Notes under the pieces: model-generated
Databases searched by the model: none
Seen by the model: the letters and a program-made list of their open reading frames with translations, nothing else
Told to the model about the DNA's origin: nothing
Origin: a virus
Lineage: Duplodnaviria; Heunggongvirae; Uroviricota; Caudoviricetes
Virus record (IMG/VR): IMGVR_UViG_2711768057_000002
Direction: 5' to 3' (one strand)
DNA length: 18,974 nucleotides
Part shown: one piece after another, positions 1,688-17,714 of the stretch
How positions within the stretch are numbered: position 1 is the stretch's first letter
Layout: each line of letters begins with the position of its first letter
Program-made: the position numbers and the translations under genes

Positions 1688-1975
1688 TTACTGTCTCTGG
1701 CAATCTTTATAGCGATAACGCCTGAAGTACCCTCTCGCTTCCTCATCCATACCAAGAGCCGAATGAGTCCGCTTAACTGCCTGTCTTAAATCTCCGAATC
1801 TGTCTGTAGTTGCTGGTGGGCGTGCCGCCTTACGGATACATTCAGATCGTCTGTTTGCTGCATGTTCACGTTCTTTATCGCCATCTGCCAGCATCATGAC
1901 TTCTGCCCATCGTGCGGCAGCTCTCCGGTATAGCCCTTTTGACTCCAGCTCTTCAGCTTTCCTGTCCCTTATCAT
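1688..1975 (-). CDS. Small basic regulator, PerC-family-like (95 aa)
   Basis: N-terminus MIRDRKAEELESKGLYRRAAARWAEVM resembles the PerC-family pattern (AE-LE-KGL-RRAA-RW) from memory; SD GAGAGG 6 nt upstream of ATG; TATATAAT -10-like element about 20 nt further upstream. Confidence 0.6.
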   Translation of the reverse strand: MIRDRKAEELESKGLYRRAAARWAEVMMLADGDKEREHAANRRSECIRKAARPPATTDRFGDLRQAVKRTHSALGMDEEARGYFRRYRYKDCQRQ

Positions 1976-2704: not shown

Positions 2705-3682
2705 TCAATCGCTCCCTTTCCGCCCTTCAGCTACAGGGTCGTTGTCGGCGATAACAAAACCTAAGTCCTGAGAGAATCTCTCTCGTGGGAATCCTTTGGC
2801 AGGTAAACCCATTGAATCATATCCACATCCGGGAACATTTGGTTTAGAGTCAATAAGGTCTGCAATTTGCCGAAGCCATGTTGATCCCGGACCAAGTTGT
2901 TTAACTAAGTACCAGATAATACAGATCGCGCTAAAAATCCTCTCGCAACTCTCTGGATGGAGATTAAGTCCGTCAAAGTATTCATTATCCGGTACTGGAA
3001 CTCGGGGATGCTTTCTATTCCATATTCTGGAATGGTGAGCGCAACGATTCCTTATGAGATTAAGGCACTTCAACCATTTTGCAAATGTCTGCTTATTATC
3101 AATGCCAAAACGACGTATAATTTTCCCCTGCATATGACCATTAAGCATCGCATAATATTTAGACATCTGACCAAAATCCCAGGTCTCCACCGCCACCCAA
3201 AATGGAATCTCCTTGCCTTGGCTTCGATGCCATTCAATACAGTCATCTCTGCTTTCGTCTAATTTTACTTTTTGCTTATACACCCAATGCTCGAAGGCAG
3301 ATGAGAATTTTGGATTAATGTATTTTGATGACATGTAGGCAAGTGGATCATTGCGACCAACCTCATGCGCGATGACTGAACGAACATGAATCTCTATTCT
3401 TTCGATAGCATCAATCATCAAAAGACGCAGTTTTTTGTCAAAAAGATATAGATCGTACGTCTTCTCGAAACTGGTACCAGCAAGAAATCGGTCTGTTCTG
3501 TACGAAAGACCTTTATCTGTTGTCGCAATAATTCTTGATGGGTACCAAAAACCTGACAATCGATAATATCCAACCTGCGACAGCTTACGTATCGCACGAT
3601 TTCGATCATTGATAATCATGCCACGTTCAAGTAGCAATCCTAGCAATTCGTGATAGTCCTTATGAGGCTTTGCGGCAATCAT
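2705..3682 (-). CDS. Abi_2-family abortive infection protein (AbiD/AbiF-like), about 325 aa from ATG at 3682 (ORF track extends to a GTG at 3727)
   Basis: Hallmark Abi_2 motifs: N-terminal HELLGLLLERGMIINDRNRAIRKLSQVGYYRLSGFWYP, central LYLFDKKLRLLMIDAIERIEIHVRSVIAH, C-terminal LIRNRCAHHSRIWNRK; AT-rich relative to flanks. Confidence 0.8.
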   Translation of the reverse strand: MIAAKPHKDYHELLGLLLERGMIINDRNRAIRKLSQVGYYRLSGFWYPSRIIATTDKGLSYRTDRFLAGTSFEKTYDLYLFDKKLRLLMIDAIERIEIHVRSVIAHEVGRNDPLAYMSSKYINPKFSSAFEHWVYKQKVKLDESRDDCIEWHRSQGKEIPFWVAVETWDFGQMSKYYAMLNGHMQGKIIRRFGIDNKQTFAKWLKCLNLIRNRCAHHSRIWNRKHPRVPVPDNEYFDGLNLHPESCERIFSAICIIWYLVKQLGPGSTWLRQIADLIDSKPNVPGCGYDSMGLPAKGFPRERFSQDLGFVIADNDPVAEGRKGSD

Positions 3683-3852
3683 AGTGGCGAAACAAAAGAT
3701 AATAAAAGGCCCGACCGTGAAACTCACATGCCTGAAATCGGCGGCGGAGAAACAGAGGATCGGGCTCGGTTGCCCGTAACTCTATCCGAAGTTATCCACA
3801 TGTCAATGCACAGTTACTTAGGAAACTAACATAGATACTATCATCACTCACG

Positions 3853-4155: not shown

Positions 4156-4473
4156 TCACACCAGATACATGTGATTGGTGTACCCGCATAAAACATTGTC
4201 ATAGCGCGTCCTGTGCGCATATACGCCGATAATCAACACATCGCCACCACTCTGACTTATGTAGAGAACAGTTTTATGGTACTCCCCTCCATCGTGCGCG
4301 TACTTGTCTCGAAATTGGTGTTTTGCTGTGGCAGTGATATCAGAAAAATCTTCCTGTTTCACATAAAGCGGATATGCGCGTACTGTAACGGCCCCATCAA
4401 CTGGGAGCGGATTTGAAATCCCGACCCAAGCTATGTACCAAATGCCATGTCTTGGATATATGATGATTGCCAT
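4156..4473 (-). CDS. Hypothetical protein (start uncertain; ORF open to 4602)
   Basis: C-terminal about 80 aa have protein-like composition, but no SD precedes either candidate ATG and the 5' part overlaps the better-supported plus-strand membrane ORF. Confidence 0.25.
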   Translation of the reverse strand: MAIIIYPRHGIWYIAWVGISNPLPVDGAVTVRAYPLYVKQEDFSDITATAKHQFRDKYAHDGGEYHKTVLYISQSGGDVLIIGVYAHRTRYDNVLCGYTNHMYLV

Positions 4474-4501
4474 TCTAAACAAAGCTAAAGGGAGGGTTGG
4501 T

Positions 4502-4858
4502 GTGAGGGGGCAGGCAGTTATAATTATTTTGTTGGGTTTAATTGTCGCAAAGTTATACCCGACTTTATCGATGGTGTTTTTTGCCATTATTGGCGCAGCC
4601 ATCTTTACTTATATCATTAAACATACCGCCTTGTGGTTCTATAAAATTGATATAGTTCAGAAGTTTGTACGTCCTGTGTCGATGTTATTACTAGCATTAA
4701 TACCAATTGGTGTTGCTTATGTAATTGATGTTTTTTACCCTTCGGACACTGAAAGGTGGTTGATAGTTTTGTATTGTTATATTGGTGTAGCTCTCTTTTG
4801 TGGATTTCATTGGTGTTTCGAAAAGATCAATGACTCTATTTCAAAGAATAAAGATTGA
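4502..4858 (+). CDS. Small integral membrane protein, about 4 predicted TM helices (118 aa from GTG at 4502)
   Basis: Strong SD AAGGGAGGG (4489-4497) 5-6 nt before GTG; four hydrophobic stretches (AVIIILLGLIVAKL, MVFFAIIGAAIFTYII, VSMLLLALIPIGVAYVI, WLIVLYCYIGVALFCGF); long open frame in AT-rich DNA; convergent with the 705-aa gene; GGCCA-TCCG-TGGCC hairpin right after the stop. Confidence 0.5.
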   Translation: MRGQAVIIILLGLIVAKLYPTLSMVFFAIIGAAIFTYIIKHTALWFYKIDIVQKFVRPVSMLLLALIPIGVAYVIDVFYPSDTERWLIVLYCYIGVALFCGFHWCFEKINDSISKNKD

Positions 4859-4877
4859 GGCCATCCGTGGCCATTCA

Positions 4878-6995
4878 CTAGTCATTATCTGGATCATTAG
4901 ATAGCCAAGTAATGATGCCCAGTCTGGCGATGGTCCGTTTTTCCTGTTCAGGAAGAGAGTTAAAAAAACTCTTCCATTGAGGGGAGCGCCTGATACGTGA
5001 ATCAACAATGTGCCCAGGCGCTTTTCCGTGTAGATTTTTTACTGCGCTCTGGAAGGCTGGCGAGGCAATTAATTTATCCGCAGCATCAGCCGCCCCTGCT
5101 CCACCAGCTAATCGAGCTTTACTCGCCAATCTTGCTCCAATATCAGCCCCAGCAATGGCTCCAAGCGATCCAAAATGAGCGCCTACCATCGTGCCTATTT
5201 TTTGAATGTGTTTTGCTGCTAGTTCGTATGGAGCTGTTACCCGATTAAATCTGTTTACAAACTCATTCAGCTTACCAGTAGATATTTCATGCGCTTTAGC
5301 ATTTTTTATTGCTCTGGCAACTTTGTATACATCATATAGTCCGCTCATTGTTTCTTTTGGCAAATGTTCAGCCAAAGTCTTTAGCTGTCCACTGTGTTGC
5401 AAGTTTTGCCACCAATCTGCAAAGCCAGATGGATTAAAGTCGGCCCCACGCTTCCCAGAGGAAAGCATATCTCTTAATGCTGTTCCTACTAGCTCCCTTC
5501 GCAATGTTCTTGATGGAGTATTTTGCATAATCTCACGAAACCCTCTCGCATCACCTTTTGCCATAGATTGAAGAGAATTCGTTACTTTATACGCTATATC
5601 CCCATTAAGTGTTTTCCCGCGAAGATTTACCATTTGCCTTTCTAAGTTTTTTCTCATAGCTACAAGGCGTTGTGCGACTTCGAAATCTCGCAAGTATCCA
5701 GTATTGGATAAGACAGATTTTTGGTCTTCAGCTAAAGCTCCATATAGTCTTGATAGCGCTTCTTTATCAGCATCTTTGTATGGCCCCTGCTTTTTATTTA
5801 GGGCATCACCAACTAAACGCCTTTGCCTGTTTAAATTTGCATACGTTAGGATGCTATCTGGGCCGGGGTTTATTGCTGTAAAAACTCGCTTTTCTATTGG
5901 GTCAAGATTATCCCACCCTCCTAAATCATCAGCGATTTTTTCCAGCATAGTGCTTGTGTTATTTGCTTCGACTTTTGTTCTTGGTGATAGAGCGGAATCA
6001 ACACGTTTATATAACTGATCACTACGGTTTTTTAGTGCTTCCATTCTACTATTTATCTGATAAATATATTTTTCGCTCATAGCTAACGCATCTGGCGCAC
6101 CAGCAACATCATCGATTATCTTGCCAGCACTAGAGGCTAATTCGCTTATTGCTTTATCTTCTTGAGCTTTTAACGCTGATCCTGTCCGTGACTTTAGGGC
6201 TTGCTCTACAGCTTGGTATTGCTCATTTCCTGATAAATGAGAAGGAAGAACTGAATCAACATGAAGCCTATTTGCAGCCTCAACAATTTCTTTCTGAGGT
6301 TTTAGATCTAGCCCTTCAAGCGAAGAGGCAAGATTTGGGTTGCCTTGTGCAGATAACTTACGAATTTTCTCTTCGGCAGGAGTAATCCCCTCAATATCTG
6401 GAATCGAAGAAACATTCTTCTTGGTTAATTTCCCAGCTATTTTATTAATTGCAGGGCCAGCAAGTTCGGCTACAGGGCCAGCCACAGCGCCAATAGCAGC
6501 GCCGGAAGCAACATCGCTATTTGTTCCATTGGCTACAATAGCCCCTTCTCCAGCACCAAGCCCTGCGGCGGCAGCCAGTCTTGCCGCCCCTTTGGGAACC
6601 TGAGAAATAATCCCACCACCACTAACAAATGGCGCTGCTTGTCCAACGAACTCACCAACATCTTGTGCGGTTGATGGTTTTGCCGCTAACTTCTGCTGTA
6701 GAGACTGAATTGCGGCTTGCTCTTCTGGTGTCATATCCTGAAACAGGCCAACACCTTTACCAACATCCATCAATCCACTGAGAACGCCATACATAAAACG
6801 GTCGAAACCGTTAGCATTATTAACAACATTTTCCTGTCTGGAATTTTCCTCTGGTGAAACCAAAGGTGATTGCTGCTGTTCTGGTTGGGCATCAAGCACA
6901 AAACCATCAGGAAGCTGTGAACTATCAGGAAACTGTGAGTTATCAGGTTGTTCATCGAGCACAAAACCTTCCGGTAAGATTACATTTGCTGCCAT
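4878..6995 (-). CDS. Hypothetical 705-aa protein: acidic Pro-rich N-terminus with tandem repeat, Gly/Ala-rich hydrophobic segments
   Basis: Long ORF; its ATG overlaps the upstream gene's stop by 16 nt (translational coupling); no catalytic motif recognised. Confidence 0.8.
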   Translation of the reverse strand: MAANVILPEGFVLDEQPDNSQFPDSSQLPDGFVLDAQPEQQQSPLVSPEENSRQENVVNNANGFDRFMYGVLSGLMDVGKGVGLFQDMTPEEQAAIQSLQQKLAAKPSTAQDVGEFVGQAAPFVSGGGIISQVPKGAARLAAAAGLGAGEGAIVANGTNSDVASGAAIGAVAGPVAELAGPAINKIAGKLTKKNVSSIPDIEGITPAEEKIRKLSAQGNPNLASSLEGLDLKPQKEIVEAANRLHVDSVLPSHLSGNEQYQAVEQALKSRTGSALKAQEDKAISELASSAGKIIDDVAGAPDALAMSEKYIYQINSRMEALKNRSDQLYKRVDSALSPRTKVEANNTSTMLEKIADDLGGWDNLDPIEKRVFTAINPGPDSILTYANLNRQRRLVGDALNKKQGPYKDADKEALSRLYGALAEDQKSVLSNTGYLRDFEVAQRLVAMRKNLERQMVNLRGKTLNGDIAYKVTNSLQSMAKGDARGFREIMQNTPSRTLRRELVGTALRDMLSSGKRGADFNPSGFADWWQNLQHSGQLKTLAEHLPKETMSGLYDVYKVARAIKNAKAHEISTGKLNEFVNRFNRVTAPYELAAKHIQKIGTMVGAHFGSLGAIAGADIGARLASKARLAGGAGAADAADKLIASPAFQSAVKNLHGKAPGHIVDSRIRRSPQWKSFFNSLPEQEKRTIARLGIITWLSNDPDND

Positions 6996-8323
6996 TTTCC
7001 GTTCCTGTAAATGATTTTCTGACCAGTTTTAGGGTTGGTTGCCGTTGCGCCTTCTGATATTCCTCCGGTTGCCGCTTTTGCCTGTCCAGTGCCAGCCTGT
7101 GATGTAGGCTGCCCGGAAACATCGTCAAATAGCTTCGCTTTCCTTCTTTCAAGGCTTTTTCTTAGCCCCTGAGGAATAGTTTCTCCATATGTATCGAGAT
7201 ACTCGTCAACCTGCTGGTTAAACTGCTGCCCCATAGCATTGGCGTTGATTTTTGCGGCGTTAACAATGTTATCCTTTGCCTCCTGCGACAGGCCGTTTCC
7301 AGCATTAAGCTGGTCTATGTATCCTTTGATTTGTCCCCATATGCCATCAGACCGCATTACCTGAACCTGTTCGCCTTCACGAACGACTGACTGCGGGTCA
7401 AGAGATTTCATGTAGTTGAAGATAATCCCAAGTTGGGCAGCGCCAGTATTTACCTTGCTAAGGGCTTGCAGAGAGTTTGCCGCCGCTCTGACAGAGTTAT
7501 AATTTTTGCCAAAATTGGTAATGTCAGAATTTAATCCCTTAATTAAGTCTGCTGACGGCTTACCTTTTTGCCCCAGCTCCATTAGCTTCAATCCCATCTC
7601 ATCTGAGTGAATTTGTGCTCGCTGAGCCCTGTCTAGTTGAGCGTTCTGGATATTTGCCCATCCTCTCGCGTTCTCCATGTCAGCCTGACGCATACTTTCA
7701 TCCAGTCGCCCTTGCTCAAGTCGACGACCTTCCATTTGATCTTTGATATCGAAATACTTCTCATGACCGAGAGAAAACAGCGCCAGATTACCTGCGAAAT
7801 GCTGGAAGCCCTGCGGGTCATTAACCTGCATTTCAGCAATAGTTTCTGGAGGGATACCTAAACGACGCATCTCCTGCTCATTATCCATCATGAACCTGCC
7901 AAATGCGCCCTGACCAAGCGATGAGGCTACCTGTGCTTTGAGCGCCAGATTGCCATAATCATCCCTTTGAGCATCATCGACATAACTCATCCCTTTACGG
8001 ACTTCCTCAAACTCTTCTGGGAATGCTGTAATAAGATTACGCATCTGCTCCCTGTCACCGGACGCATAAGCATCTGCATAACCTTTCTGGAATGCCGCTT
8101 TACGCTCCTGCTGTTGCTGCTGCTTATAAATATCAGCAACTCCAGCCAGACCTCGAAGACCTGTCAGACCAACGTTATTTGCACCTGAGCGAGCCAGTTC
8201 ATTGTTTTCGCGGATCAGACCAAGCGTTGCGTTAATGTCGCTTGCCTTTGGCGCATTCTCATTTTGCGCACCAATGCCAGCCAGAAAACCACCAGAATTA
8301 ATACCCTGTTTCCACGTAGCCAT
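6980..8323 (-). CDS. Hypothetical 447-aa protein, Gln/Asn/Ala-rich, probably largely helical (start ATG 8323; track shows GTG 8335)
   Basis: ATG at 8323 lies 4 nt after the stop of the 57-aa ORF (TAAATCAATG); MATWKQGINSGG N-terminus; no Walker or nuclease motifs seen. Confidence 0.8.
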   Translation of the reverse strand: MATWKQGINSGGFLAGIGAQNENAPKASDINATLGLIRENNELARSGANNVGLTGLRGLAGVADIYKQQQQQERKAAFQKGYADAYASGDREQMRNLITAFPEEFEEVRKGMSYVDDAQRDDYGNLALKAQVASSLGQGAFGRFMMDNEQEMRRLGIPPETIAEMQVNDPQGFQHFAGNLALFSLGHEKYFDIKDQMEGRRLEQGRLDESMRQADMENARGWANIQNAQLDRAQRAQIHSDEMGLKLMELGQKGKPSADLIKGLNSDITNFGKNYNSVRAAANSLQALSKVNTGAAQLGIIFNYMKSLDPQSVVREGEQVQVMRSDGIWGQIKGYIDQLNAGNGLSQEAKDNIVNAAKINANAMGQQFNQQVDEYLDTYGETIPQGLRKSLERRKAKLFDDVSGQPTSQAGTGQAKAATGGISEGATATNPKTGQKIIYRNGKWQQM

Positions 8324-8327
8324 TGAT

Positions 8328-8501
8328 TTACCCACGTCCAGTTAAAGTGTAAGCCAGCGCCTTATCCATTAATCCCCGAGCAATTTCGTGGATCGTTGGC
8401 GCAACTCCTACCTCTGATTTTTTACGCTGCTCCTCCTGAATTTTCTTTATCGCTTCCATTTGCTTCTCACTTATCAATACCGGCTTTACTGAAATAGCCA
8501 T
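8328..8501 (-). CDS. Small 57-aa protein MAISVKPVLISEKQMEAIKKIQEEQRKKSEVGVAPTIHEIARGLMDKALAYTLTGRG (not in ORF track; below its size cut-off)
   Basis: Translated by hand from the minus strand; strong SD AAGGGGG 5 nt upstream of ATG 8501; stop TAA 8328-8330; strand-then-helices pattern compatible with a small RHH-like DNA-binding protein (inference). Confidence 0.5.
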   Translation of the reverse strand: MAISVKPVLISEKQMEAIKKIQEEQRKKSEVGVAPTIHEIARGLMDKALAYTLTGRG

Positions 8502-8516
8502 AACGCCCCCTTAGAA

Positions 8517-8563
8517 CTGTATAAAACAACAGTCATTATAGTTTCATAAAACGCAATATTCAT
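8517..8563 (-). promoter_or_regulatory. Candidate sigma70 promoter (-35 ATGAAT 8563-8558, 17-nt spacer, -10 TATAAT 8540-8535) overlapped at the transcription start by a LexA-box-like site CTGTATAAAACAACAG (8517-8532)
   Basis: Perfect TATAAT hexamer on the minus strand; CTGT-N8-ACAG with one perfect CTGTAT half-site, 3 nt downstream of the -10 and 16 nt upstream of the ATG at 8501. Confidence 0.4.
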
Positions 8564-8594
8564 CATTGTGATTGCAAAATATGAAACAAATAGC

Positions 8595-8629
8595 ACAAAA
8601 AAATGCCACCGCTCAGTAGCTGGTGGCAT
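8595..8629 (-). terminator. Rho-independent terminator (minus strand): ATGCCACC-11 nt loop-GGTGGCAT followed by TTTTTTTG
   Basis: Perfect 8-bp GC-rich stem (8603-8610 / 8622-8629) followed on the minus strand by a run of 7 T; separates the upstream genes from the SOS-box promoter. Confidence 0.6.
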
Positions 8630-8994
8630 CGTTCTGTATGTCAGGTTTTGACAGGTTTTTTATGGACTCTAAAAACTATATTTACGATGTCGCATTACTC
8701 TTCACGGCAGGCGCTTTCCAGTTCTGCCCTTGCTTCTGGCTCCATTGGTAATTTGATTCGCGATCAGCTATGCGGATGGTTTGCTGAACAGGCATAACAA
8801 CATCTCAGAGGCTATTTTTTGAACTACGAAAATTTCGTAGGTCTCTCCTTCAAAAACGTCACGCCCTTGTACACTGGATTTTACAAAAGTCTCGTAAAAC
8901 TCTTTGCTGTTCTGGGCTATGTGCCAAACCGCAGCGAATACCTCCGTCTGCCAGATGAGCAAAACATACCTTATAAAGAAAATCGCTGTTTTTG

Positions 8995-9098
8995 CTGTAC
9001 CACCTGTACCACCATGTCACAAACCCTTGTGTGACGCGGCCTGCAGGTGGTACAGGTGGGTAAAAATGACCTCTCCCCACCTGTACAGACCTGTACCA
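8995..9098. repeat. Iteron cluster A: TGTACCACC x2 direct (8996-9013), inverted copy GGTGGTACAGGTGG (9047-9060), ACCTGTAC(C) x2 (9078-9097); internal palindrome GTCACA-N8-TGTGAC (9016-9035)
   Basis: Read directly from sequence; same core motif (ACCTGTACCACC / GGTGGTACAGGT) as cluster B about 1.1 kb away. Confidence 0.6.
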
Positions 9099-9103
9099 TT
9101 TAT

Positions 9104-9841
9104 TTAATTTTTACCCATAGCAGCACATAATCCCTTTTTTGAAATATTGAAAAATGCGTTCATTCTTCCCGCTGGCTTAACCTTGTAGCCGCTTGCCACC
9201 ATCGCCGCAATAAATGCTCCGTTGGGGATATAGTGCGGGTGATCACTGTGCTGGTGGTTTATCTGGTTATATCGCTCCACTTCATGCTTCAACGTGTCAG
9301 ATGTGGGGTTATCCTGCGGGAAGCTCTCAATCTGGGCATTACTCATCCCGTTGTCTCTGATCCATCTCAGGCAGCTTTTCGCCGATACGATAAATGACGG
9401 GTTATCAAGCGGGTTTTCCCAGTCCGCATTCCGGTTGTGGAGCGCCAGTCCGTCAAGGTTAAATTGTGGGTATTCAGCGGTAATTACTGTCACTGCGTGG
9501 CGGATTTCAGTCTCGTCACAACATGGCTCATCTCCCACACCAGCAGGGTAATAATCTGAACCACCGGGACTGATACAGCGTTTACCACTGAAAGGCCATT
9601 GCTTCGCCATTTCGGGTGTTGAGTGATTACCGTCGCTCCGTTCGCGCTGTGCCTCTGTCCACTGGCTGGCATATTCAGTAAATGAAACCCTTTGCCCCTG
9701 ACGCATCCAGTGCGCAATCATAATTAAAGTGCGTTCCAGACTTTGGATGTCGCCAGCATTCCCGCACTGTGTAGCGAAACTTTTTAATTCTTCGCGCTCC
9801 GTTCTGGTCATTCCCTGCGGTATGCAATAGTTATTGCTCAT
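9104..9841 (-). CDS. Hypothetical 245-aa protein
   Basis: SD GAGAGG 7 nt upstream of ATG 9841; start overlaps the upstream 76-aa ORF stop (translational coupling). Confidence 0.65.
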   Translation of the reverse strand: MSNNYCIPQGMTRTEREELKSFATQCGNAGDIQSLERTLIMIAHWMRQGQRVSFTEYASQWTEAQRERSDGNHSTPEMAKQWPFSGKRCISPGGSDYYPAGVGDEPCCDETEIRHAVTVITAEYPQFNLDGLALHNRNADWENPLDNPSFIVSAKSCLRWIRDNGMSNAQIESFPQDNPTSDTLKHEVERYNQINHQHSDHPHYIPNGAFIAAMVASGYKVKPAGRMNAFFNISKKGLCAAMGKN

Positions 9842-13869: not shown

Positions 13870-14890
13870 TGGTTGCCCCCGTTTTTACTGGCATTTCGCC
13901 ACCTTCCAGCAGGAAATGAACGTCACGAACGGCGAGATCCAATATCGCGAGTAACGCCTTCAGTCTTTCGTCTCGTGAGGGAGAGTTGCTCACCAGAATG
14001 TCGTTAATCACTTCTGTCAGTGTGATGATCTGGCTTGTGCGTTCGAGGGGATCCATATGCACATCGTAGGTTTTAATCATGTGCCACCTCCATGCGGATA
14101 CGACCAGCAAAAAAGCAGACGTGATCGCGCACCAGAGAACGGCGAGCATCGCGTTCAGACTCGGCAGCAATATGATGAATTTTGGCGGTAATTGTCGGGC
14201 AATCGCGGCGAACTGCGGCGATAATCCAGATAAATTGCGGTTTTTGGGTAGGGGTAGTAGCCAGCATGTGGCAGCCTCCTTGATTGATGGTTTATAGCCA
14301 CCGCCCAAGAGACCAATCTTGCTGGCGGTGGACTGTACGGAGTTGGCCTTACTGGCAATCAAGGAAACCAGCCTACCCGAAGGTAGCCCCATACAGCCCA
14401 CCATTGATAAGGTGTGCGTGTGCGCCGATACAAAAAAAGACGCTGGCGCGTCATGTATCGCCTCGATTGTCAGCGGGAGGCCAATCCCGGCACCCGTTTT
14501 ATGAGGTGCCTTATAACCATAAACCGTGTTGCCGCATAACGGCAAGCTCTTTTTTATGGACTCCGAAAACTCACTATTGGAAGCACCAGATGCACAATAC
14601 ATCGCGCTCATTTCGTTAACGTCACGCGCATGGACGAAGGTTTTTGTGGAGTCACTACACGAGCGGAAGACATCATCTACGACCAGAAATTTTCTGGCGC
14701 AGCCGCTGACCTTCTCAATGCTAATATCATCGCCCGAGATTTCTGGTATGGTTAAGGCATCCGTTCCGACCACCAGCAAATGATAAACTTTGCTTGTATC
14801 TGCTGTATTAATGCCTGACTTTGCCGTCATATTGCTGGATTTTGGCGACATACCAGCCAGTGAAAATGTCTTCTTCTGGACGGGTATCAT
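13862..14890 (-). CDS. Hypothetical ORF (342 aa as drawn; possibly composite, see findings)
   Basis: Start at 14890 well supported (SD GGAGG 7 nt upstream, ATGA overlap with upstream gene); the central part has odd composition and an in-frame ATG at 14080 has its own strong SD GGAGGTG. Confidence 0.45.
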
Positions 14891-17619: not shown

Positions 17620-17714
17620 TGCGTCACCTTTTACGCTGCGCCTTATTTTGTGATTGAGCCAGGCGGTAAGGCTTCCCGCTTTTCGCCCCGTCGAGCTAGG
17701 CTCAATCTATTCAG

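Follow-up and report, generated by a model that had tools for sequence, protein, structure and literature searches.

Why would a phage satellite carry two large genes behind a predicted SOS promoter, and what might their products do? The question is raised by an 18,974-nucleotide (nt) stretch of DNA, IMG/VR virus record IMGVR_UViG_2711768057_000002, referred to hereafter as the window. On its minus strand, three tightly packed open reading frames (ORFs) encode proteins of 57, 447 and 705 amino acids (aa), and a gene for a small membrane protein converges on them from the other strand. An earlier note on this stretch described both large proteins as unrecognised and offered several roles for them, the last of which, put forward with a hedge, was a satellite-encoded ejection pair recalling P22 gp20 and gp16. 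Pfam, PHROG and synteny all agree with that last guess. Our results suggest, without proving it, that the satellite equips helper particles with its own DNA-delivery channel.

The 447-aa protein matches Pfam family PF16928 (Inj_translocase), described as "DNA/protein translocase of phage P22 injectosome", over residues 12-219 with 247.5 bits (cut-off 29.7; E = 1.5e-73). With a score so far above the cut-off, and with the RefSeq label "phage DNA ejection protein", it can no longer be called unrecognised. The protein also matches phrog_917 (E = 4e-132) and aligns with P22 gp20 itself at 53% identity over residues 1-212 (E = 3e-72), the first 60 residues being almost identical. Overall identity to gp20 of the P22-like phage Kapi1 is 74.7%, distributed as a mosaic: in a profile taken piece by piece along the protein, identity to Kapi1 gp20 is 92-100% in residues 1-50 and 200-447, and residues 50-200 diverge. 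In codons 200-447 the ratio of non-synonymous to synonymous substitution rates (dN/dS) relative to Kapi1 is 0.086 with a dS of 0.44, and the gene is therefore not a very recent copy from that phage. By homology, the 447-aa protein is a counterpart of the P22 ejection protein gp20, which forms the periplasmic conduit tube. A mechanical ORF list takes its reading frame back to a GTG at 8335; we place the start at the ATG at 8323 because the alignment with P22 gp20 begins at MATW.

From end to end, the 705-aa protein matches phrog_6704 (E = 1.4e-174); a match to phrog_770, "DNA transfer protein", has an E value of 1.2e-50. No Pfam family, PF26808 included, reached its cut-off, and a BLASTP comparison with P22 gp16 itself gave no detectable similarity (E = 0.49). 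The latter is expected because identity among the gp16 proteins that different P22-like phages encode is reported to be only 22-26% (PMC10461980). Full-length relatives with 41-45% identity lie directly after gp20 in phages Kapi1 and E212 (Lederbergvirus) and in Salmonella P22-like prophages, all with the gene order 14-7-20-16. The N-terminal ~150 residues are 78-100% identical to those of Kapi1 and E212 and the rest is unique; the divergent parts of the gp20 and gp16 genes show 20-60% identity to Kapi1 or E212. The window allele lacks a transglycosylase domain. Judged from synteny, the 705-aa protein is the inner-membrane "DNA transfer protein" found at the gp16 position of P22-like phages, and gp16 is reported to be membrane-associated (PMC10461980).

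The 705-aa allele was found at full length, with an identity of 99.4% or more, in 84 E. coli genomes, and the operon copies in the window and in strain G3X16-2 differ at 12 of 3624 positions (7 synonymous and 3 non-synonymous changes). Substitutions relative to the phage copies and between island copies are mostly synonymous, a comparison in which dN/dS is underpowered for separating selection within islands from selection within phages.

Reading along the minus strand, the locus consists of a terminator, an inverted repeat, a TATAAT hexamer, a CTGT-N8-ACAG motif, a G-rich Shine-Dalgarno sequence and the 57-aa, 447-aa and 705-aa ORFs. The 57-aa ORF (8501-8328), hereafter the leader, is preceded by a GGGGG Shine-Dalgarno sequence at 8506-8510. 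The 447-aa ORF (8323-6980) begins four bases past the leader, the junction being TAAATCAATG, and shares 16 nt (6980-6995) with the 705-aa ORF (6995-4878). All of the ORFs, junctions, promoter elements and the terminator described in the earlier note were recovered, and the tight coupling of the three genes that it drew from the leader junction and the 16-nt overlap is plain in the sequence. The identical 16-nt gp20/gp16 overlap occurs in Kapi1, in E212 and in the Salmonella prophages.

The locus thus resembles the P22-like virion module, in which sieA converges on genes 14-7-20-16, in its gp20 domain, its syntenic gp16, the overlap and the converging membrane-protein gene. It differs in being carried by a satellite without coat, portal, tail, gp14 or gp7 genes (no gp7 or gp14 gene was found upstream of gp20 in the window island), in having its own LexA-box promoter where the phages use a late operon, and in beginning with an island-specific 57-aa leader that the phages lack.

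The carrier was identified from its gene content and position. Positions 1-1064 are the E. coli chromosomal dinD region, with dinD itself at 1-837 on the minus strand, and the remainder of the window is an island between dinD and yicC, inserted in the intergenic region at about 1057-1064. The island encodes a tyrosine integrase, a 321-aa protein of no assigned function, AlpA, an AntA-type antirepressor, DUF4222, an Ash/Icd region, a 783-aa primase, the operon under study, an Abi_2/AbiD gene and PerC. A survey of the gene content of the window found no capsid, tail or lysis genes in the island. An integrase, AlpA, a primase/replication module, accessory genes, a size of ~18-20 kb and a specific attachment site are the marks of a phage-inducible chromosomal island (PICI), and all are present here. 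On these grounds the element is a PICI of the EcCIMP1 family, a phage satellite and not a prophage; the earlier note had also taken its host element for a phage satellite, and the PICI backbone is now identified.

EcCIMP1 is a PICI of E. coli MP1 (Pick, Stadel and Raivio, ISME J 2025, PMC11773190). Its excision requires a Kapi1 prophage and it is transduced at low frequency by Kapi1 lysogens, which makes Kapi1, a P22-like phage, its proven helper (PMC11773190). The authors noted that EcCIMP1_017-019 are like "DNA transfer proteins" as well as DUF2824 proteins and guessed at a role in packaging; no test of these genes is reported, and the words "LexA" and "ejection" do not occur in the text of the paper (PMC11773190). 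The two islands have in common a backbone of AlpA, AntA, DUF4222, Ash/Icd, primase and PerC, together with the promoter, the LexA box and a leader ahead of P22-type ejection-protein genes. They differ in that EcCIMP1 lies at thrW and carries gp14-gp7-gp20-gp16, the last with an SLT domain, plus a lipoprotein gene, whereas the window island lies at dinD/yicC, carries gp20-gp16 only and adds the convergent membrane-protein gene and Abi_2. Their alleles are unrelated (23% identity for gp20 and 16% for gp16).

The leader gene and its promoter

The operon is predicted to be under SOS/LexA control. A perfect -10 hexamer, TATAAT (8540-8535, minus strand), already pointed out in the earlier note, was recovered and is invariant in all of the E. 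coli, Serratia and Raoultella island loci examined. Two nucleotides past it begins the CTGT-N8-ACAG core (8532-8517) of a predicted LexA (SOS) box, GACTGTTGTTTTATACAGTT (8515-8534, minus strand). The core motif occurs twice in the window against 0.21 expected; the other copy, at 871-886, is the well-known SOS box of dinD.

We scored the site with a position weight matrix (PWM) built from 23 E. coli SOS boxes that were not drawn from a database. The operon box scored 17.7 bits, second best in the window after the dinD box (26.6 bits) and ahead of a third-best site at 8.0 bits. These genuine boxes scored 7.5-25.8 bits in leave-one-out tests, a range that includes the operon box, and a score of 17.6 bits was reached anywhere in 3 of 200 shuffled windows. 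The dinD box (AACTGTATATAAATACAGTT, 869-888, 26.6 bits) was our internal positive control. Eight E. coli island loci have the same LexA core and differ in the flanking bases. In Serratia islands CTGT and ACAG are kept with a changed spacer (20.8 bits), and in Raoultella islands, which carry other cargo, the spacing is shorter by one base and the score is 3.6-9.5 bits. The LexA-like site proposed in the earlier note thus gains a score and conservation in E. coli and Serratia.

Features of the promoter hint at a further input. The -35 element is poor, and because of this weakness the promoter was missed by a consensus promoter scan; the same weakness suggests an activator-dependent promoter. A 17-nt inverted repeat, GTTTCATATTTTGCAAT-N13-ATTGCGTTTTATGAAAC (8541-8587, minus strand), abuts the -10 hexamer and spans the -35 region. 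The exact half-site ATTGC-N5-RTGAAAC occurs nowhere else in the window, no extra copies of the half-site were found in the island, and TTTCAT and (A/G)TGAAAC elements stand at matching positions in the Serratia and Raoultella islands. The repeat is a candidate operator or activator site, and it points to a second regulator besides LexA; AlpA or the leader protein as its binder would be a guess. Farther upstream, the primase-side transcription unit ends at a predicted intrinsic terminator (8596-8638, minus strand; core stem GAUGCCACC...GGUGGCAU, U-run 8603-8597). It folds at -24.1 kcal/mol (z = -5.5), none of 200 shuffles folded as well, and a motif scan also lists it as terminator-like. The strong terminator said in the earlier note to insulate the operon from the genes upstream is well borne out by this fold and the T-run that follows it.

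Judged by its conservation, the leader is a genuine gene that belongs to the island backbone and does not come from a phage. In the island loci examined it is always the first gene after the conserved TATAAT and LexA box; the earlier note had made its place in the operon depend on its presence in homologous loci, and it was found in every one examined. Its dN/dS is 0.057 relative to Serratia and 0.096 relative to the EcCIMP1 type. In strain MB10 the identical protein (WP_001018522.1) is encoded ahead of another gp20 allele. Residues 1-50 are kept across genera, and the last few residues vary with the downstream junction. A tblastn search of the phage collection gave no hit at E <= 1, and no Pfam or PHROG hit was obtained. 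The ORF was also considered as a remnant of gp7; this was rejected, there being no similarity to Kapi1 gp7 and, again, no phage hit by tblastn at that threshold.

An AlphaFold2 model of the leader protein (pLDDT 74) has an extended N-terminus and helices at residues 12-28 and 37-53. The modelled shape resembles a ribbon-helix-helix monomer, a likeness that is unproven. Foldseek gave no hit better than E = 1.5, with the ribbon-helix-helix protein ParD appearing only at E = 8, and hhalign against Arc and Mnt returned probabilities below 1%. There was no Pfam hit at E <= 10 and no significant profile hit among PDB sequences.

Distribution of the cassette and the gene that converges on it

The promoter and leader gene together (at least 90% identity) were found in 499 of 5426 complete E. 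coli genomes (~9%). Two junction probes were used to see what follows the leader, one from leader to gp20 (241 nt, a hit being counted at 80% coverage or more) and a second from leader to gp14 (DUF2824). The first junction was present in 217 genomes and the second in 258; therefore ~95% of the 499 islands carry P22-type ejection-protein genes. The four-gene form gp14-gp7-gp20-gp16 occurs in EcCIMP1, in strain 042 (enteroaggregative E. coli) and in strain 98221, and the two-gene form gp20-gp16 occurs in the window, W284, G3X16-2, MB10 and the enterotoxigenic strain H10407. In a minority of E. coli islands, as in that of strain 600029 (our locus L008, 8311-8982), the leader is followed by a 223-aa protein of no assigned function, without ejection proteins. 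The border of the 600029 island also bears two tandem copies of dinD.

The island family also has relatives in Serratia, Klebsiella/Raoultella, Erwinia and Salmonella. In the Serratia islands the backbone is the same and carries a leader, gp20, a gp16 that has an SLT domain, and a small gene that converges on them. In Raoultella/Klebsiella islands (loci L014-L016) the leader (9001-9186) is followed by a 605-aa phrog_7694 protein, which resembles "tail injection transglycosylase" families at its C-terminus, and then by terS-like genes; this cargo, together with the degraded LexA box, suggests that the slot adapts to a different type of helper. From these cargoes we regard the slot behind the leader as the island's virion-exploitation operon.

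Sequence divergence within the slot is extensive. Between islands, gp20 identity is 22-51% and gp16 identity 16-24%, and gp7 is identical in all three four-gene islands compared. EcCIMP1 and its helper Kapi1 are only 23% (gp20) and 18% (gp16) identical. Disrupted copies exist as well, with a gp16 pseudogene in MB10 and IS1 insertions elsewhere. Judged by its recurrence, the ejection cassette is a conserved hallmark of the island family and not debris. In the earlier note, confident homology to ejection proteins was coupled to a demotion of the operon to ordinary prophage cargo. The homology is confident; the demotion fails because a PICI is the carrier and its family has the module as a conserved hallmark.

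The gene that converges on the operon (4502-4858, plus strand) encodes a 118-aa protein with four predicted transmembrane (TM) segments, hereafter the 4-TM protein, and ends opposite the gp16-like gene. The start at GTG 4502, as given in the earlier note, is upheld by a Shine-Dalgarno sequence, GGGAGGG (4490-4496, plus strand), that is conserved across islands, and hydropathy agrees with the four segments. This site marks the boundary between conserved sequence and variable cargo: four islands are alike up to the GTG, and the island of strain 98221 diverges immediately downstream, where the corresponding GTG yields a textbook signal peptide. The two types of membrane protein have only the first helix (~20 aa) in common. 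A longer ORF from 4433 was rejected, as its upstream "MIAILNKAKGRVGV" stretch is DNA common to islands whose proteins diverge later, and the RefSeq start in G3X16-2 (131 aa, corresponding to about 4466 in the window) was rejected in favour of GTG 4502 on the same evidence.

Apart from near-identical E. coli copies, the only relatives found for the 4-TM protein are Salmonella proteins with 45% identity. Their genes are located in P22-like prophages, where they immediately follow a phrog_6704 gp16 and precede the Arc/Ant/tailspike region; this is the sieA position of P22, between genes 16 and 9. In other islands the same slot holds another protein with 3-4 TM segments, a secreted phrog_2651 protein or a lipoprotein. 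One of these, in EcCIMP1 (locus L006, E. coli MP1, 6632-7330), is a predicted lipoprotein of 232 aa encoded on the same strand at the post-gp16 position; it is a candidate source of the superinfection immunity reported for that island.

Like SieA types A-C, the 4-TM protein is the product of a small, convergent, multi-TM inner-membrane gene directly after gene 16. It differs in length (118 aa against 164-212 aa) and in having neither detectable similarity to SieA nor its C-terminal motif. Homology to SieA was rejected at the sequence level on the basis of BLASTP E values of 0.049 or higher against the SieA proteins of P22 (type A) and HS1 (type B) and the absence of the FxRYPxEAxxFNK motif. 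The only other matches, to Bax1-I and CBO0543, were sub-threshold, and there was no phage hit. The 4-TM protein is probably an envelope "moron" and possibly an exclusion protein made in the resident state. The earlier note had likened the convergent layout to immunity or exclusion genes. The layout is real and is inherited from P22-like phages, and the immunity part is unsupported. Because sieA or other envelope genes converge on gene 16 in P22-like phages, the arrangement is no sign of a bacteriocin. A hairpin between the convergent stop codons folds no better than shuffled sequence (z = -0.11), and we do not regard it as a bidirectional terminator.

Possible roles of the operon

We propose that this is an SOS-timed virion operon that would load the satellite's own co-adapted gp20/gp16 pair into helper particles, a reading to which we give a probability of about one half. 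Gene identity, context, conservation and the predicted SOS box are its established part. In this model LexA would repress the operon until DNA damage induces a P22-like helper prophage and cleaves LexA. The island, by then replicating, would produce its own gp20 and gp16, and these would enter helper procapsids in trans, as foreign ejection proteins do in P22 hybrids. Particles containing island DNA would then build an island-type channel across the envelope, using the gp7 of the helper. The payoff would be DNA delivery that is independent of the gp20/gp16 allele of the helper, and it may extend to evasion of SieA-type exclusion in recipients with a resident P22-like prophage, which are the hosts that the satellite needs.

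The behavior of hybrid phages is consistent with this model. In P22/Sf6 hybrids, genes 16 and 20 function only if they are swapped together and gene 7 can be swapped alone; very divergent foreign ejection proteins do enter P22 virions and function there (PMC10461980). Because genes 16 and 20 need a joint swap and gene 7 is interchangeable, the gp20-gp16 module would be the minimal portable, self-compatible ejection unit. SieA is an inner-membrane exclusion protein that acts on the gp20/gp16 conduit, and the changes that escape it lie in gp16 and gp20 and not in gp7 (PMC10461980). A bolder version, tentative and in our estimate less probable than loading itself, is that PICI-borne gp20/gp16 cassettes re-arm helper particles such that island DNA enters helper-excluding, SieA-bearing cells, and that PICIs serve as a major reservoir and exchange platform for the hypervariable genes gp16 and gp20.

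Several points weigh against this reading. Virion loading, the role in transfer, the timing of expression and the selective benefit are steps that we infer. SieA types A and B still excluded hybrids with very different ejection proteins, and only the HK620 set partly escaped; a divergent allele alone is therefore no proof of escape. For EcCIMP1, only low transduction was measured, and its authors did not try the ejection-like genes (PMC11773190). Helper and satellite particles would load from the pool of one cell, and any benefit would therefore be shared with the helper. Mixing two incompatible gp20/gp16 pairs in one cell could even be harmful. The purifying selection seen relative to phage copies could date entirely from the genes' time in phages, prior to a recent capture, and some island copies are broken, as noted for MB10 and for those with IS1. 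As to control, LexA binding is predicted from a PWM whose boxes were not drawn from a database, a second activator may dominate given the poor -35, and Raoultella islands have a degraded box. The alpA gene of EcCIMP1 is reported to respond to the helper, and DNA damage as such does not trigger it (PMC11773190).

The broken copies would also be expected if the genes were passenger DNA, captured by recombination between satellite and helper and kept by hitch-hiking and repeated exchange with no benefit to the island. The mosaic identity with Kapi1-like phages, which extends over ~1.2 kb across the gp20/gp16 junction, fits such a capture, as does the near clonality of the 705-aa allele in the 84 genomes in which it was found. 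Set against this are the ~95% of islands that retain an ejection-protein cassette at the same junctions and the Serratia islands, in which the same architecture recurs and both the LexA box and the leader gene are conserved. The slot is filled by several unrelated alleles whose ORFs are intact, and the dS of 0.44 and dN/dS of 0.086 relative to Kapi1 indicate a copy that is not very recent and a divergence that is mostly synonymous. We consider mere passage unlikely.

Interference with the helper is a common trait of satellites, known from PICIs, Staphylococcus aureus pathogenicity islands (SaPIs) and P4. A second alternative is therefore that island gp20 and gp16 co-assemble with the incompatible pair of the helper, so that helper virions deliver their DNA poorly. 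Particles with mismatched gp16 and gp20 do assemble and are non-infectious (PMC10461980), and the EcCIMP1 alleles have only 18-23% identity to those of the helper. Such subunit poisoning is quite unlikely in our view, for the titre of Kapi1 upon induction was unchanged by EcCIMP1 (PMC11773190), satellite particles, being supplied from the same pool of protein, would suffer equally, and the carriage of a complete co-adapted pair speaks of the need for a working channel and not of a lone poison subunit.

A third possibility places the action in the resident cell, where the 4-TM protein would block DNA entry by P22-like phages, with or without cytoplasmic ejection proteins acting as decoys or sensors. 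The gene does lie at the sieA position, its distant homologues are found only there, in Salmonella P22-like prophages, and an Abi_2/AbiD gene adjoins. EcCIMP1 adds superinfection immunity against Kapi1, for which the responsible gene is unmapped (PMC11773190). Yet the 4-TM protein is dissimilar to SieA types A and B and has no FxRYPxEA motif, no export signal was recognised in gp20 or gp16, and PADLOC, run on the four genes of the operon region, matched no known or candidate defence model, the neighbouring Abi_2/AbiD gene being the only match. A LexA-repressed operon would, moreover, be off in the resident state, when exclusion is needed. At best the proposal accounts for the 4-TM gene and not for the two large genes, and as an explanation of the whole operon we rank it as improbable, below the two preceding ones.

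That the locus encodes an SOS-induced bacteriocin-like toxin with a convergent immunity gene, as the earlier note had entertained in view of the LexA box at the promoter and the small opposite-strand multi-TM gene at the end of the operon, and as the reported membrane association of gp16 (PMC10461980) might seem to allow, is highly improbable: both large proteins are orthologous to virion-internal proteins, no colicin, receptor-binding, translocation or lysis family was found at Pfam E <= 0.1, leaving no toxin, receptor-binding or lysis component, and the same convergent layout exists in P22-like prophages, where gene 16 belongs to the late operon.

Known satellites modify the capsid size, packaging specificity, late gene expression or tails of their helpers. 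Satellite loading of a gp20/gp16 pair would, if true, be piracy acting on genome delivery, not on capsid size or packaging specificity. In the literature searched, no satellite that supplies ejection proteins is described, and only the EcCIMP1 paper touches the subject. The closest regulatory parallel is SaPI operon I, another case of satellite exploitation of helper virions under LexA that fires with SOS induction (PMC3152322). Its LexA regulation, together with its packaging and capsid-size functions, is reported there and, as cited elsewhere, in Ubeda 2007. LexA control has been shown experimentally for SaPI operon I and is predicted for the window operon; the SaPI operon, moreover, encodes terS and capsid-size factors in place of ejection proteins, has no sequence relation to the window operon and belongs to a Gram-positive host. 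Pore-forming colicin operons also combine an SOS box with a small membrane-protein gene on the opposite strand. Lacking a colicin domain and a lysis gene, the window operon bears what is by homology a superficial resemblance to them, its large proteins being virion-internal.

The instance is not new in itself, because the family was described in 2025 and both large proteins belong to known families. New with respect to the literature searched are the reading of the genes as a complete or minimal ejection set, the SOS box, the island-specific leader, the prevalence and the ties to gp16/gp20 co-adaptation and to SieA. If the reading of the operon as a virion-loading device is true, it would account for gp16 and gp20 being the virion genes with the greatest mosaicism in P22-like phages, provide direct genetic access to the way in which SieA-type exclusion reads the conduit of gp20 and gp16, and tie SOS-inducing antibiotics to the spread of islands with PerC-type virulence regulators and Abi defences. 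If it is not, hundreds of genomes will still have had some of their "hypothetical proteins" usefully re-annotated.

Other features of the island

Three Rfam RNAs were found on the minus strand. A C4 antisense RNA (14321-14408) and an isrK RNA (14433-14509) lie within the region of a 342-aa "Ash" ORF, and an int-alpA RNA (17640-17706) adjoins the integrase gene. There seems to be an immunity module of the P1/P7/P4 c4-icd-ant type upstream of the AntA antirepressor. Ash and Icd are split or fused differently by RefSeq from genome to genome.

The accessory end of the island holds the Abi_2/AbiD-type abortive-infection gene (2705-3727, minus strand) and the PerC-family regulator (1688-1975, minus strand); the PerC homologue of EcCIMP1 is reported to silence locus of enterocyte effacement (LEE) expression. 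Head-to-head with the 4-TM gene is a conserved 104-aa ORF without a family match (4156-4470, minus strand). RefSeq annotates either this ORF (in W284) or an over-long plus-strand ORF (in G3X16-2), never both, and other islands have an insertion of ~50 nt inside it.

Direct and inverted GGTGGTACAGGTGG / CCACCTGTACC repeats are clustered at 8995-9098, downstream of the primase, in the interval from a 245-aa gene to the terminator. The cluster is a candidate replication origin with iterons.

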